From the IMG/VR virus record IMGVR_UViG_2654587996_000001, positions 1-36,538 of that record: a DNA stretch of 36,538 nucleotides; one strand, 5' to 3'. A program made the position numbers and the translations under genes. Source of the DNA: a virus (lineage: Duplodnaviria; Heunggongvirae; Uroviricota; Caudoviricetes). Below are positions 1-6,041 of the stretch, piece after piece. The notes under the pieces are model-generated. The model was not told the origin of the DNA. It saw only the letters and a list, made by a program, of their open reading frames with translations, and made no database searches. Positions within the stretch are counted from its first letter, which is position 1; each line of letters begins with the position of its first letter.

Positions 1-735
1 TCAACTCTCTTTCAAACCGGTTTTAACTGTCTGTGGTTTTGGGTAAGGCTGGACTTTGAATAGCTTTGTGTTGAGGCGTTTTCTGGCTCTCTTGTTCAGA
101 AACCGGATGTAACGAAACTGGCGGAATTTATGAACACTGGCTCTGTCGATATTAGCCCTCAGATGTTCACCTCGCTGTCCTCCTCGTTTGATGGTATTCC
201 TGCAAATCTCGTGATACCACTCGCCATCAAGTTCATAGAATGTTGATTCATGGCTGCCAACATAATCAAAATTGCTTGCCTGATACACGACACCAAGACA
301 GCCACAACGCTCATCTGCAAACGACTGAACCCACTGCACCTGCGGATAAAGTTGCCTGATGAGTTTGAGTGCGTAACTGATTGCCCTTGATTCGGAGTTT
401 CTCGGCATACAGTCATGCATCCATAGCCGGTTAAGCTCCATGTATTCACGGTTCTGCGTACCCGTTACGATGCGCGCTCCGCTGTTTGGATTAAGGGCAT
501 AACCCCATTGCATTACGCCAACCAGCTCCCGTTCTGAAAATATCCCCAGATGAAGGTAGGAGTTATTTACGAAACGGTGGCTGTAATGTTTATTGACGAT
601 GACCAGTCGGGCCAGCCAACAACTTATTGTCTCAACACGCAATTCACGGGAGCCATAACCAACGATATTGTCGTTATAGCGAATAAGTTCAGGCGTGCTG
701 ATGATACGGGATGTAACTTGCTTTTTGTTCCCCAC
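1..735 (-). CDS. mom: Mom-like DNA modification protein; proposed GTG start at 735 (244 aa); the frame stays open upstream to 1086
   Basis: Lies immediately downstream of and overlapping a Com-like zinc finger gene, as in Mu. GTG at 735-733 is preceded by AAGGAAA about 9 nt upstream. No ATG exists in this frame between 895 and 513. Stop TGA at 1-3. Assignment is by position, not by recognised Mom sequence. Confidence 0.5.
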
Positions 736-889
736 GACAGGATTTCCTTGTGTATGTGGGGTGCTCTGTGGCGCTCTGTGATGTGATTTGATTGAGGGTT
801 TTACAGCGCGGGCATTTGACTTCCAGATAGCTGAAACTGGCCCGTGCCAGTAGCTTATTGCAGTGTCGGCACCGTATGTTTCGATACAT
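689..889 (-). CDS. com: Com-like zinc-finger translational activator of mom
   Basis: Translation [14 protein letters not shown]...VKCPRCK has the C-x2-C...C-x2-C arrangement and CPRCK motif recalled from phage Mu Com; about 66 aa; 3' end overlaps the proposed mom start. Confidence 0.7.
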
Positions 890-938
890 GGCCGCATAAC
901 CTCCTGCTTTGTTGTTGTTGTTGATGTTTGCTTCATCA

Positions 939-963
939 AATCGATCGACAAAAACGATCGATT
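939..963. promoter_or_regulatory. Perfect 9-bp inverted repeat AATCGATCG-N7-CGATCGATT carrying two GATC sites, upstream of com-mom; a third GATC at 1026-1029
   Basis: Read directly from the sequence. Sits 50-140 bp upstream of the com start on the minus strand. In Mu the mom promoter is controlled by Dam methylation of clustered upstream GATC sites. Confidence 0.5.
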
Positions 964-1103
964 CGATTTGTTTAATTGATACAACAAATAACACGAAATG
1001 TCATTAGCGAAAATTTTATGAGGTTGATCACTAATTTTAAAAGGTGCAGTAACGCATAAGTGATGAATGATTGTACATTTGAACACCGCAAAGCAAACAA
1101 CTC

Positions 1104-1614: not shown

Positions 1615-1869
1615 TTACATCATAGTACTGTCAGTTCCGGACTGAGCCGGTTCTGGTTGTTCTGGCTGTGCGTCGGTTTTCGGCTCATTATCAGCATCAC
1701 TGGCCGCAGCAGCTGGCCCAAGAAGTTTTGCCAGCACCTCATCAACGTAAGTGTCGATTTGTGCCTCAAAATCCTTGCGGACCTGCGCTTTCAGTAATTT
1801 ATTTACTTCACCTGAATACAGCGCCTGTTTGACCAGGTCTTCAGTGACAGTGCCTTTAATCTCTGGCAT
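1615..1869 (-). CDS. Hypothetical acidic protein (84 aa)
   Basis: Strong ribosome-binding site AAGGAGG 6 nt upstream of the ATG; AT-rich; acidic Pro/Glu-rich C-terminus. Confidence 0.55.
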   Translation of the reverse strand: MPEIKGTVTEDLVKQALYSGEVNKLLKAQVRKDFEAQIDTYVDEVLAKLLGPAAAASDADNEPKTDAQPEQPEPAQSGTDSTMM

Positions 1870-1904
1870 GTATATCCTCCTTATGCGGGAATACAGCCCT
1901 GCAA

Positions 1905-2087
1905 TCAGGGCTGGGTCGGGTCTTTTGGGAGCGGGGTTGCCGTTGTTGTTTTACTGAGTTTTTCCGCTGCTGCGTCATCAATTTTACGGCGGACATAATT
2001 TCGGATAGCTTTGTAGCCACCACTCACCAGATATAACGCGCAGACCACCGAGCAGAAATATAATAAAATAAGCTGTATAAATGTCAT
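1905..2087 (-). CDS. Small membrane protein (60 aa), one N-terminal transmembrane helix then a basic tail
   Basis: Hydrophobic N-terminus IQLILLYFCSVVCALYLV; GGAG 7 nt upstream of the ATG; 35-nt spacing to the next ORF suggests co-transcription. Confidence 0.5.
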   Translation of the reverse strand: MTFIQLILLYFCSVVCALYLVSGGYKAIRNYVRRKIDDAAAEKLSKTTTATPLPKDPTQP

Positions 2088-2223: not shown

Positions 2224-4302
2224 TTATCCTGCTGACGGGGTATTCACTTCCACCACAATGCTGTCAATCAGCACCGGATATGTCGCAGCGCTGGTGATAT
2301 CAGTCACCCGTAATTTGTCTGCCGTAAACGTGCCAACCGGAGACTGAGACAGCATGAATGGTGTCCCGTCCTTACCATCAATGACCGGCGTCACCTCAAT
2401 ACTGTTGTTACCGGCAAAACGGAAGCCCAGCGTATGCCATTCGTTATTAAATGCACCGAATGACCCCAGTTTCGTGTTTTGCGCCGTATTGCCCTTGTGG
2501 TACATCACGTTAAGGTCTGTGGCATCGCTCTGAACGTAAAACGATGCCAGCAGGTTATGACCGGCATTACCTTCCAGAGTAACCCCTTGCGGCAGGGCAG
2601 AAACCGGCCAGTACAGCGCCATCGCGTACTGATTAGCCGTAAGCGTACCATCAACCTTAAACCGGCAACTGACAAGGCCACCTTTACCCAGCAGGTCCGC
2701 ACCATTACCGGCATCATGCTCAAGGTACCAGGAGGATTTGCCTGTTTCCTTGGTCAGTTTCATGGCCTTACCACTACCTGCTCCGGCATCATCCACGATT
2801 TCAGCCTTGCCACCTCCCGCGCTCCAGCCCTGTGGTGACAGCTGACCTTCTGATTCAGATGTCCGGTAAGCAAACAGCGTGCTCATCGTCGTGGTGTCAG
2901 CCGGTGGAGTGGACGGTGTATCCGGCGATGGTGTTGATGGGGAGTCAGGTGATGGCTTCTCATCCGGTGGTGTCACGGTCTGCCCGCCCATCAGTTCAGC
3001 CGTGCGCCCTGCATGGAGCAGAATAGCGGAGGCCAGACGGTCTGAAATAATGCCCCTGCGTGCCCATGAGCTGAAATGGCTGTCACGCTGTGTCGAGACA
3101 AAACTGCCCTGAGTACGGGATGCTGCACCATAATACCCGACAGCCACAATATCCGGGTCTTCCGCCGGAGCATTTGTTGGCGTGTTTGCGCCGTTTTCAT
3201 CTGTCAGGAACGGTACAAAGAAAATATTCTGTGCTTCCTTGCCTTTGTAGCCACCGTATACTGTCTCATATTTATCGGTGCCAGCGTTTTTCCAGTAATA
3301 CGTGGTATCACCGCAAATCCACGGCACCGTGGTGGCATTTCCGCTCACACACTGTGCAGCAAGTGAGGACAGGTCAGTCCTGAACTGCTGAACCATGGCC
3401 GTGAATAAACCGTTATGCTGCTGACTGCCTGAAGCAAGGTCTGCCTCGCCCTGCATCCATACCACCGCCAGCAGCCTGTTTTTCGGGTTCTTCGCCAGCG
3501 CCGCTTTTGTCCGGCTGACCATGTCCTGATACAGGGGTTTACCGGCACCCCAGCGTGCAGCGTCAGCGGATGCGCCACTGGCCTCACTGAATGTACCGTC
3601 GGCACCGGTGGTGAATGCAGAACCACCACGACAGCAGGGCACCAGAAGTATCCCTGCATTCTGCGGGATATACGACAGCAGCTTTTTGGCAATATGCAGC
3701 CCCTGACTGACACAGCCATACTGCCCCTTATTCAGGTCCGCTTTCGGATGATTAACACCGCTCATATCCTGTACATCATGCAGACAATGGTCAGCCGGAA
3801 TCACATCATTGTATGCACAGGCGTCTCCACCCGGCGTCACTGTACTGCGGCGTGCCAGCTGTTTAATGCGCGGGTCCGGGCGGTCATAAGAGTCCGGTAA
3901 CGGAAGCCCCTCACCGTAGGCCATGCCGTTGGACTGTCCGGCAAGCACAACCACGTAGTAATACTCCGGCTCTCTGTTGCCGCCACTCACACTGCCGGAA
4001 GACCCGGCGTTATCCGGTGCATTCCAGTCCGATGGGGTGAGCGTTCCGGCCACATCCGACGTAATGGGAATGACGCCGGTCACGCCAGAGCTGGTAATTT
4101 CTGCACTGGGGGTACCGGACACAGGCATTACCCATAATGGCTCTTTCGTGCTGAAGCGGATCACACAATCTGCAAAGGTGATCCCGCCTTTATTACCCGA
4201 AGGCCGGAAAGGGCTTTCAATAAATGCCACAGTGCCACCGGCAACCTTGACTGAAAACTCTCCGGGCATGGCGGAGAGCATTTTCCACTGGGAGTCTGAC
4301 AT
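2224..4302 (-). CDS. SGNH/SASA-family esterase domain protein with Pro/Ser/Thr linker and C-terminal beta-rich domain; candidate virion-associated receptor-modifying enzyme
   Basis: Motif VVVLAGQSNGMAYG (GQSN nucleophile block of sialate O-acetylesterase-like SGNH hydrolases); linker PPDEKPSPDSPSTPSPDTPSTPPADTTT; no N-terminal signal peptide; located just past the tail fiber genes. Confidence 0.7.
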   Translation of the reverse strand: MSDSQWKMLSAMPGEFSVKVAGGTVAFIESPFRPSGNKGGITFADCVIRFSTKEPLWVMPVSGTPSAEITSSGVTGVIPITSDVAGTLTPSDWNAPDNAGSSGSVSGGNREPEYYYVVVLAGQSNGMAYGEGLPLPDSYDRPDPRIKQLARRSTVTPGGDACAYNDVIPADHCLHDVQDMSGVNHPKADLNKGQYGCVSQGLHIAKKLLSYIPQNAGILLVPCCRGGSAFTTGADGTFSEASGASADAARWGAGKPLYQDMVSRTKAALAKNPKNRLLAVVWMQGEADLASGSQQHNGLFTAMVQQFRTDLSSLAAQCVSGNATTVPWICGDTTYYWKNAGTDKYETVYGGYKGKEAQNIFFVPFLTDENGANTPTNAPAEDPDIVAVGYYGAASRTQGSFVSTQRDSHFSSWARRGIISDRLASAILLHAGRTAELMGGQTVTPPDEKPSPDSPSTPSPDTPSTPPADTTTMSTLFAYRTSESEGQLSPQGWSAGGGKAEIVDDAGAGSGKAMKLTKETGKSSWYLEHDAGNGADLLGKGGLVSCRFKVDGTLTANQYAMALYWPVSALPQGVTLEGNAGHNLLASFYVQSDATDLNVMYHKGNTAQNTKLGSFGAFNNEWHTLGFRFAGNNSIEVTPVIDGKDGTPFMLSQSPVGTFTADKLRVTDITSAATYPVLIDSIVVEVNTPSAG

Positions 4303-4555
4303 CGTCTTTTCTGCCTGTTTCTGAATTAAACAGAGTCAGAATAACAACCGCTGATAAATATGTGTTTTGCGGAAATTCAAAAAAAGCGTCACGGTACTTT
4401 TTATGACGGAGCCGGTGAGGCAGGAACATAACGACAAAGGATGGACAGGCCAATATGATAACCGCATATTACCGGCTTATAATTTAATTAACGATTCATG
4501 ACGCGGCGGTCAGCACCTGAAAATATGCGTTATTTCAGACAACCCTTGCCTGTAT

Positions 4556-5128
4556 ATGGCGATAGTATTATTCCTGTTTTTATCATTGATTCACATGGTG
4601 ATGTTTATGCAACTGATTAATGTTAAACGATATTACCCGGAACACAAACCCTATGGTAATGATGTACAGTATTTTCAGAGTGAAGATGGTAAGGATTTCT
4701 ACGAGTCCCTGCCATTATTCACAAAAAAATATAAACTTTGCATAACACCAGACAGCGGCGTTATCTGCTCAATATCACAGGACGCCTCGGCACTGTATCC
4801 TGCGGGTTTTTCCGTGGTTGAGGCCGATGAACTCCCTGAAGGCACGGATATTTCAGGAAACTGGACGTTTGATAATGGCGTTATCTCCCGGCTTCCGGTT
4901 AACTACACCAAAAAAGCGGAAGCACAGCGCCAGTCATATCTTAATCAGGCATATGAAAAAATTAATGACTGGAGAACTGAGCTACAACTGGGCACGATCA
5001 GTGATGAAGACAGAGCAGCACTTACCCAATGGATGGCATACATCAGTCAGGTGAAGAAAATGGAACTACCCGCCATTAAAACAGAAGCTGAATTTAACGC
5101 CATTAAATGGCCTGAGCTGCCACAGTAA
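4556..5128 (+). CDS. Tail fiber assembly (chaperone) protein; real start probably internal, around 4595-4607
   Basis: C-terminal region DWRTELQLGTISDEDRAALTQWMAYISQVKKM resembles conserved Tfa/U-family C-termini. On the opposite strand from all other structural genes. Confidence 0.65.
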   Translation: MAIVLFLFLSLIHMVMFMQLINVKRYYPEHKPYGNDVQYFQSEDGKDFYESLPLFTKKYKLCITPDSGVICSISQDASALYPAGFSVVEADELPEGTDISGNWTFDNGVISRLPVNYTKKAEAQRQSYLNQAYEKINDWRTELQLGTISDEDRAALTQWMAYISQVKKMELPAIKTEAEFNAIKWPELPQ

Positions 5129-5131
5129 TAA

Positions 5132-5151
5132 AGAAGGCCGGAAGGCCTTCT
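5132..5151. terminator. Bidirectional terminator hairpin between convergent tail fiber and Tfa genes
   Basis: Perfect 8-bp stem AGAAGGCC / GGCCTTCT with GGAA loop, placed between the Tfa stop (5126-5128) and the tail fiber stop (5160-5162); U-rich flanks on both strands. Confidence 0.6.
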
Positions 5152-5159
5152 GAATATCA

Positions 5160-6041
5160 TTATATACTTGCAGCCGTCACCCATGCTCCATTTAACAGAT
5201 ACTGCAACGGCCGGTAATACACGCCGCCGACGTTATCTGCCGTATTCTTACCGACATCCTGTACTTTAATTCCGGTAAGAACATTGCCGCCCCCCAGATT
5301 CAGATCCCAGCTTTCCCATGTTCCGGGCATATGTGCGGTCACAGACCCCAGCCTGATACCCGTCACTGTTCCTGATGAGATAGTGATATCCTGCGTTCCG
5401 TCAAAGGCGACACCATTGATTTTGTGGGCGTTGGCCAGCCTGTTTGCTGCAACAGCCGTGCCGTTCGATGGCAGGGCATTCGCGGCCTTGTTTACCGTAT
5501 CCCGTAAACCGACGTTATCGATAAAAGCCCCTTTATCCGGAATGTCTGCGCCGTTCTGCTCCCTGCGCAGGTAATGGTTATCACCTTCGCTCCTGCTGTA
5601 AACATCCAGATTATTACGGGCGGTCCCCTTATTCTCCAGATCGGCCAGATTCTGATCCTTTGCCAGTGCATTAACGTCACCGGGACCAAGACTGTTTTTT
5701 GTGGCAAGCGTCCCCAGACCAAGATAACCACGGGCCAGACGCTGGGCCTCCGCACCGGCATCAGCAATTTCTTTCAGGTTATTTTTCCGGGAAAAGGCAT
5801 TCGCAGCGATAATGGCTTTAATGGACAGCGTAAGCTGGTTTAACTGCGCCTTATCCGGCTGGATATTGGCTTCAGCCAGAATATTCAGCAGTTCGGCCTG
5901 GAGAATATTCAGCCAGTCCTGACCGATCCAGCTGATACCTTTCTGTCCGTCACCTTCGGTAAACCAGGTGGTGGTATTACTCTGCGCCGGTGCCAGCGCA
6001 GGCATATTCGCCACGCCGGAATTATTATCAACATGAAACAT
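5160..6041 (-). CDS. Tail fiber protein (S-like), 293 aa
   Basis: Position after the baseplate genes; N-terminal [13 protein letters not shown] segment typical of tail fiber N-termini; Gly/Asn-rich C-terminal part. Confidence 0.65.

Follow-up and report, generated by a model that had tools for sequence, protein, structure and literature searches.

The DNA analyzed here, called the window throughout, is the whole of the IMG/VR virus record IMGVR_UViG_2654587996_000001 (36,538 nucleotides, Caudoviricetes), and our subject is the nanS-p-type esterase gene that lies between its tail fibre region and com–mom (Table 1). The window is an essentially complete Mu-like prophage in minus-strand reading. 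Its genes stand in Mu-like order, with transposase A and B, Gam, Mor/C, lysis genes, terminase, portal, protease and gpT head protein followed by sheath, tube, tape measure, baseplate, gp48 and tail fibre S. We take it to be a prophage of the same kind as Sp18, the Mu-like prophage described in O157 Sakai. Beyond the fibre region come the esterase gene, small genes for DUF1378 and DUF826 proteins, an orphan open reading frame (ORF) and com–mom. A sequence-only reading made earlier had placed the esterase after the tail fibre and fibre-assembly (Tfa) genes and before com–mom. The order from fibre and Tfa to com–mom is right but incomplete, as DUF1378, DUF826 and the orphan ORF were omitted and Tfa is on the opposite strand.

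The enzyme body of the protein has well-characterized relatives. Residues 111–428 match E. coli NanS (YjhS), the 9-O-acetyl-N-acetylneuraminic acid esterase, at E=2e-118 (PDB 3pt5), and residues 474–688 match the crystal structure of a phage NanS-p C-terminal domain at E=2e-98 (PDB 6yp6). Pfam places SASA at residues 117–313 (4e-14, above the family cut-off) and DUF6645 at residues 538–655 (2.7e-68), while phrog_143, a large PHROGs family of unknown function, covers residues 73–691 (5e-298). Matches of such strength (SASA, phrog_143, 3pt5) lie well outside what chance would give. A tblastn search of 50,697 phage records gave 349 matching records, mostly Shiga-toxin (Stx)-converting or other lambdoid phages, and the lambdoid matches span residues 110–688, typically at 55–67% identity. 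The copy in 933W, annotated “SASA family carbohydrate esterase”, is 66.7% identical over residues 112–688, and lambdoid NanS-p reaches 89% over residues 101–687. The SGNH blocks, as defined for NanS in PMC10462455, occur in their NanS-specific form: GQSN at 122, RGGSAF at 225, WMQGE at 282 and RDSH at 406–409 (DSHF at 407), with GQSN (122–125) lying inside VVVLAGQSNGMAYG, residues 117–130. The four aromatic residues proposed for the sugar site of the phi24B enzyme, Y510, Y515, Y540 and F611 (PMC10462455), are kept as Y559, Y564, Y589 and F659.

Much of what the sequence-only reading said of the protein is borne out. It had described an SGNH/SASA esterase whose GQSN block is followed by a Pro/Ser/Thr linker and then by a distinct, beta-rich domain at the C-terminus; the linker at residues 436–473 contains 26% P, 21% T and 13% S, and the C-terminal domain comprises ~215 residues (474–688, DUF6645 and 6yp6). 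The region-by-region profile search that it proposed returns SASA/NanS for the catalytic part, DUF6645 for the C-terminus and no family for the N-terminus. Its statement that there is no signal peptide agrees with the Kyte-Doolittle analysis, in which neither a signal peptide nor a membrane helix is found in the esterase; the maximal 10-residue mean in the first 60 residues is 1.53, and the maximal 19-residue mean over the whole protein is 1.27.

Because of the matches to 3pt5 and 6yp6 and the retention of the SGNH blocks and aromatic residues, we place the protein in the NanS-p family. That the product is a NanS-p-type sialate 9-O-acetylesterase, encoded on a three-gene accessory cassette of a Mu-like prophage, is in our estimate close to nine-tenths probable. 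The esterase itself is ordinary, well explained by its membership of a phage family, NanS-p, that has been studied before. Recombinant NanS-p cleaves O-acetyl groups from 5-N-acetyl-9-O-acetylneuraminic acid (Neu5,9Ac2) and from mucin glycans and supports growth on Neu5,9Ac2; the esterase activity on Neu5,9Ac2 and mucin sialic acids has been reported for lambdoid alleles only (review PMC8065619). From the biochemistry of the family, the window protein would accumulate in the cytoplasm at prophage induction and reach its substrate only on lysis. It would then take the 9-O-acetyl groups off the Neu5,9Ac2 of mucin glycans, which would make the sialic acid usable by sialidases and the Nan pathway, with the C-terminal domain keeping the enzyme attached to the glycan. 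The lysogenic-conversion enzyme that the sequence-only reading had offered as its alternative fits the experiments on the NanS-p family (PMC8065619). Two observations pull against the assignment. Block IV reads RDSH, as opposed to RSSH or RASH in the enzymes that have been studied, with His409 retained. In addition, a scan gave no confident promoter or terminator for the cassette and no convincing sigma-70 promoter on the minus strand, and we therefore infer the timing of expression.

The window protein shares with lambdoid NanS-p the catalytic and C-terminal domains, the SGNH blocks, the aromatic residues, the DUF1378/DUF826 genes downstream, the lack of a signal peptide and carriage by a prophage. 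Described NanS-p has an N-terminal DUF1737 domain (PMC10462455), with one alpha-helix and three beta-strands in ~55 residues, whereas the window protein begins with an unrelated all-beta domain of ~80 residues. The chassis also differs, a transposable Mu-like myovirus rather than a lambdoid phage, as does the setting: lambdoid nanS-p is on the late pR' transcript between stx/Q and the lysis genes (holin), whereas the window gene lies between the G-segment remnant (or gin) and com–mom, with no Q, stx or holin near it. E. coli K-12 NanS (YjhS, 3pt5) has the whole catalytic domain in common with the window protein, including the blocks GQSN, RGGS, QGE and RxSH, but is chromosomal and consists of the catalytic domain alone; the window protein, which is phage-encoded, has in addition two linkers, an N-terminal domain and a C-terminal lectin-like domain. 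[quoted passage not shown] WP_010917876.1, annotated merely “DUF6645 domain-containing protein”, belongs to the second of the two clades described below; its identity to the window protein is only 61% over the N-terminal domain and 65% over the full length, and its prophage retains gin and the invertible fibre segment.

The two genes that follow nanS-p in the window follow it in the same order, DUF1378 and then DUF826, in 933W and in L040, a lambdoid prophage of E. coli M1 that reads Q, nanS-p, DUF1378, DUF826, holin, lysozyme. The same succession in lambdoid prophages is found in PMC10462455. The pair occupies 1615–2087 (minus strand) in the window, 9088–9595 in L040 and 4851–5295 in the Mu-like locus L003. 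As DUF1378 and DUF826 are shared with lambdoid prophages, nanS-p, DUF1378 and DUF826 travel as a cassette. The DUF1378 protein has one N-terminal hydrophobic helix, with a 19-residue Kyte-Doolittle mean of 2.43. Both genes are constant companions of nanS-p, in lambdoid and Mu-like prophages alike; joint action of the three products is suggested, perhaps in the release or handling of an enzyme that lacks a signal. The orphan ORF beyond DUF826 has no match in Pfam, PHROG or NCBIfam. Since the O157:H7 relative L041 has an unrelated 154-residue ORF (3213–3677) at the same position, the interval between DUF826 and com looks like a variable accessory-gene slot.

Table 1. Features of the esterase gene and its surroundings (positions in the window)
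Feature	Position	Strand	Basis and remarks
nanS-p-type gene	2224..4302, including stop codon	-	ATG start, 692 residues, predicted 72.9 kDa; ORF list
N-terminal domain, residues 1–80, all-beta (predicted)	4063..4302	-	no Pfam, PHROG or NCBIfam family; not DUF1737
Linker 1, residues 81–110, Ser/Gly-rich, predicted disordered	3973..4062	-	predicted local distance difference test (pLDDT) <50 at residues 82–108; dN/dS 0.24
Catalytic NanS/SASA (SGNH-type) esterase domain, residues 111–432	3007..3972	-	3pt5 match, Pfam SASA, SGNH blocks
GQSN block, residues 122–125, presumed nucleophile Ser124	3928..3939	-	invariant in alignments with NanS and 933W NanS-p
Linker 2, Pro/Thr/Ser, residues 433–473	2884..3006	-	length differs among relatives
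C-terminal lectin-like jelly-roll domain (DUF6645), residues 474–688	2239..2883	-	6yp6 and DUF6645 matches
nanS-p 5' leader, common to relatives with and without gin	4303..4456	-	DNA alignment near-identical from start codon to gin stop of L002
DUF1378 small membrane protein, 60 residues, second cassette gene	1905..2087	-	Pfam 2.8e-33
DUF826 protein, 84 residues, third cassette gene	1615..1869	-	Pfam 5.4e-16
Orphan ORF, 101 residues	1150..1455	+	AT-rich DNA (GC ~0.42) between DUF826 and com
com (~689–889) and mom (~1–738), Mu right end	1..994	-	Pfam Zn_ribbon_Com, Mom; tblastn mapping
Tail-fibre assembly gene (Tfa/U-like), G-segment remnant	4556..5128	+ (antisense to fibre gene)	Pfam Caudo_TAP 8e-20, phrog_136
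Tail fibre gene S, 293 residues	5160..6041	-	phrog_1833 3e-139

The N-terminal domain has no counterpart in lambdoid NanS-p. Pfam gives no DUF1737 match at the N-terminus of the esterase even at E up to 1, alignment of the N-terminal profile with the DUF1737 profile by hhalign yields a probability of 1%, and pairwise alignments to 933W and to the 89%-identical lambdoid homologue show no similarity before about residues 101–111. In an AlphaFold2 prediction from an alignment of six sequences, residues 5–80 form an all-beta structure of six strands (pLDDT ~75–87), and a disordered linker comes after it at residues 82–108. The full-length model was poor, with a mean pLDDT of 50 and the catalytic domain unfolded under the shallow alignment, and it was not used. 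A divergent DUF1737 at this position is ruled out by Pfam, by hhalign and by the predicted all-beta structure, as opposed to a helix with three strands. Fold searches with the domain returned weak cupin-type matches only, among them dimerization domains such as those of CENP-C and Mif2p. The first 80 residues may thus be described as a separate, strongly conserved, cupin-like beta domain on a disordered linker, standing at the DUF1737 position. Within the six-frame ORFs of the window, the N-terminal profile finds nothing else (best other E=0.47), in keeping with the earlier remark that this N-terminus is unlike that of the tail fibre.

The ratio of nonsynonymous to synonymous substitution rates (dN/dS) was calculated against two E. 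coli relatives. It is 0.05 in the N-terminal domain (dS ~0.3), the lowest region of the protein, 0.08–0.09 in the catalytic domain, 0.10–0.12 in the C-terminal domain and 0.16–0.37 in the linkers. By these ratios all three domains of the esterase are under purifying selection, which is strongest on the N-terminal domain.

With the N-terminal domain as query, phmmer was run exhaustively over 1.84 billion representative proteins and gave 5 matches, namely 1 spurious repeat protein and fragments of the same fusion, which continue from the N-terminal domain into the PEYYFVIPVAGQSN start of the esterase. Two of the fragments are Salmonella enterica proteins ~30% identical to the window domain, one of which sits in a Mu-like prophage after a fibre segment and a resolvase. 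Word-indexed searches found fragments only, a scan of the GTDB species-representative genomes with either N-terminal profile found nothing, and the Salmonella-type profile found nothing in IMG/VR or the JGI metagenomes. Database entries with the domain (P0001, P0128, P0129, P0005, P0007) are often fragments of ~95–160 residues that stop where the catalytic domain begins or shortly after. The likely cause is a break in draft assemblies at this point, since a genome holds several copies of the nanS-p body whereas the N-terminal part is unique. In IMG/VR the scan yielded 33 loci in two clades, with N-terminal identities of 96–100% and 60–62%. Flanks of the Mu type are present at all 33, as well as in an O157:H7 prophage, a Salmonella contig and 2 annotated E. 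coli loci. In the set of 5,426 complete E. coli genomes, the N-terminal coding DNA of clade 1 occurs in 27 and that of clade 2 in 205, with many O157:H7 and further STEC strains among the latter; 274 of the 5,426 have a related structural region of the Mu-like kind. Across these collections every occurrence of the domain was joined to a NanS-type esterase and lay in a Mu-like prophage, the hosts being E. coli, Shigella and Salmonella.

DNA homology to the lambdoid nanS-p of E. coli M1 sets in exactly at codon 111, which is the domain boundary, and continues into DUF1378, over 2,019 nt in all with 85.6% identity; DUF1737-type proteins up to 89% identical to the window protein align with it from about residue 101 onward only. 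The M1 chromosome carries both types, the Mu type at L001 5148–7217 and the DUF1737 type at L040 7001–8944, and the two enzyme bodies are 88.9% identical in DNA over 1,761 nt. With two near-identical bodies in one strain, there is therefore ample opportunity for gene conversion between prophages. In some Mu-like loci (L033, L034, L036, L037) the C-terminal domain is only 39–47% identical to that of the window, and com, mom and in some also gp48 stay at 95–98%; within the Mu-like set as a whole, com, mom and gp48 range over 84–99% (mostly 95–99%). The glycan-binding module is being swapped on its own. On these comparisons the enzyme body is a mobile module that Mu-like and lambdoid phages share through recombination, the N-terminal domain remaining with its phage type. 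By itself, such linkage of domain and chassis is no proof of a chassis-specific function, because any non-homologous 5' arm stays behind in such exchanges.

The sequence-only reading had suggested a receptor-modifying protein of the virion, that is, an enzyme mounted on the tail or baseplate in the manner of an SGNH tailspike, which would aid adsorption by de-O-acetylating the O-antigen or a sialic-acid capsule such as K1. The gene does lie directly after the tail-fibre region, and receptor unmasking has been raised as an open possibility for NanS-p (review PMC8065619). Some phage tail proteins and tailspikes have SGNH/SASA-like domains and are, like the window protein, phage-encoded members of the esterase superfamily, but the similarity is remote: a weak match of the SASA region to phrog_25867 “tail protein” (1.2e-07), the sole tail family hit in PHROGs, and 29% identity over 200 residues to the minor tail protein of Arthrobacter phage Giantsbane. 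The closest relatives are instead the sialate 9-O-acetylesterases NanS and NanS-p, at 55–90% identity over the enzyme body. That body is up to 89% identical to lambdoid NanS-p and near to chromosomal NanS, both of which act on free and mucin-bound Neu5,9Ac2. Neither the tail fibre nor another ORF of the prophage resembles the protein, which has no beta-helix, fibre-adaptor or other tail-attachment domain. Furthermore, gin sits between nanS-p and the fibre genes in relatives, and the same enzyme body is found on podoviral, siphoviral and myoviral chassis with different receptors. Given the nearest relatives and the absence of a tail-attachment domain, we reject the tailspike or O-antigen deacetylase as very improbable. 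Still harder to credit is a decaying remnant, a non-functional fusion produced by recombination of a lambdoid nanS-p with a Mu-resident gene. The loss of the adjoining gin and of one fibre cassette from this prophage, together with the abrupt start of lambdoid homology at codon 111, could be read in that way, but the frame is intact over 692 residues, dN/dS is 0.05–0.12 in the three domains at dS ~0.3–0.6, and the catalytic and sugar-site residues are retained. Moreover, E. coli relatives still have the same architecture where N-terminal identity has fallen to 61%, and in Salmonella the fusion of this domain to the start of the esterase is kept at ~30%.

The question that matters more is what the N-terminal domain contributes. 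The NanS-p of phi24B, gp84, has been reported to be structural, with a DUF1737 hexamer on the central hexon of each capsid face serving as a capsid anchor and the enzyme cleaved off later (bioRxiv 10.64898/2026.04.10.717836). By position and linker architecture the window domain could be the counterpart of DUF1737, and its likeliest single role, with about one chance in three, would be to dock the enzyme onto the Mu-type virion. NanS-p could then be pictured, tentatively, as a modular display cargo whose body is swapped between unrelated chassis, each of which keeps its own N-terminal docking domain, DUF1737 in lambdoid/phi24B-type phages and the cupin-like domain in Mu-type phages. Several results weigh against docking. 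The fold searches of the N-terminal domain gave no virion protein, and the “SSP” motifs, proposed as autoprocessing sites of gp84, are absent from the window protein. That the domain goes with the Mu chassis would follow trivially, as recombination with lambdoid copies is confined to the homologous enzyme body. Between the two E. coli clades, identity is 96% for the capsid protein and only 61% for the N-terminal domain, so the domain does not co-vary with the capsid; among the structural proteins compared there is no clean partner for it, several tail proteins being at 72–76% identity in a generally mosaic pattern.

The lack of co-variation with the capsid protein is also what would be seen if the enzyme were soluble only and released by lysis, with the N-terminal domain a dimerization domain or an extra carbohydrate- or mucin-binding module unrelated to the virion. 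The predicted small cupin-like barrel, whose cupin matches include the dimerization domains of CENP-C and Mif2p, is consistent with such a role, as is the location of the gene within the accessory (moron) region of the Mu right end. A soluble role for the N-terminal domain is at least as likely as virion docking, and we consider the chances that the enzyme is purely soluble to be evenly balanced.

Work on NanS-p has dealt almost exclusively with the accessory gene of Shiga-toxin (lambdoid) phages, where it lets the host bacterium feed on O-acetylated mucin sialic acids. The same enzyme body is also found on transposable Mu-like prophages, in ~4% of complete E. coli genomes, including O157:H7. 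What is new here is limited to the presence of nanS-p on a Mu-like prophage, a second and unrelated chassis that pathogenic E. coli commonly carry, and of an unrelated N-terminal domain at the place of the usual capsid-binding domain; the literature searched contains no paper joining NanS-p with Mu-like phages and none mentioning DUF6645, although earlier NanS-p papers outside the search may mention the variant. The domain replacement amounts to a clean natural experiment on why phages carry NanS-p. Should the new domain likewise attach to virions, display of the esterase on the surface would be the selected trait across phage types; if it does not, a metabolic or lysis-release role suffices. 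Were NanS-p a display cargo, a mucin-sialic-acid esterase would sit on the surface of the Mu-like (Sp18-type) virions found with E. coli, Shigella and Salmonella, and the ~80-residue domain would be a previously unrecognized virion-decoration adaptor of Mu-like phages. Counts of nanS-p in pathogenic E. coli that are based on DUF1737 will miss the Mu-type class.

The esterase had also been said to lie where Mu carries its G segment, which does not hold. A G-segment remnant, made up of S and an inverted Tfa, still stands upstream, and most relatives have S, an invertible segment (Sv, a single Tfa and an inverted S'v) between inverted repeats of 86 nt, gin and, after it, nanS-p. The esterase cassette is not a replacement of the G segment. 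Because gin lies between the G-segment remnant and nanS-p in most relatives, the cassette is inserted between gin and com. All IMG/VR loci with enough flank on both sides read gp48–S–(G segment, gin)–nanS-p–DUF1378–DUF826–com–mom. The window, L001, L005, L012, L013, L017, L020 and L022 are without S'v and gin and have ~150 bp of unrelated DNA instead, and no inverted repeat is left in the window fibre region (4457–6041, compared with L002 7270–9767). With S'v and gin lost and no inverted repeat remaining, the only Tfa gene of the window is therefore frozen antisense to S.

The inverted repeats of the relatives measure 86 and 50 nt. Relatives that retain gin show both orientations of the segment, one in L006, L016, L021 and L035–L037 and the other in L002, L010, L023 and others; with one Tfa between two alternative fibre tips, Tfa is co-directional with S in one orientation only. 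The GC-rich palindrome AGAAGGCCTTCCGGCCTTCT at 5132–5151, between the convergent S and Tfa genes, is kept in L002 and is likely a bidirectional terminator.

Within the esterase itself, residues 82–103 (SDVAGTLTPSDWNAPDNAGSSG) bear a weak local likeness to the start of the C-terminal domain, residues 482–511 (SESEGQLSPQGWSAGGG...DDAGAGSG). This likeness, which came to light through a match at E=12 to the corresponding segment of homologue P0040, lacks significance. Finally, comparison of the window (6100–36538) with the O157:H7 Sp18-type prophage L041 shows a mosaic. The head, portal and terminase proteins are 96–98% identical, the sheath, tape measure, gp43, gp44 and protease proteins are 72–76% identical, and ner is 43% identical.

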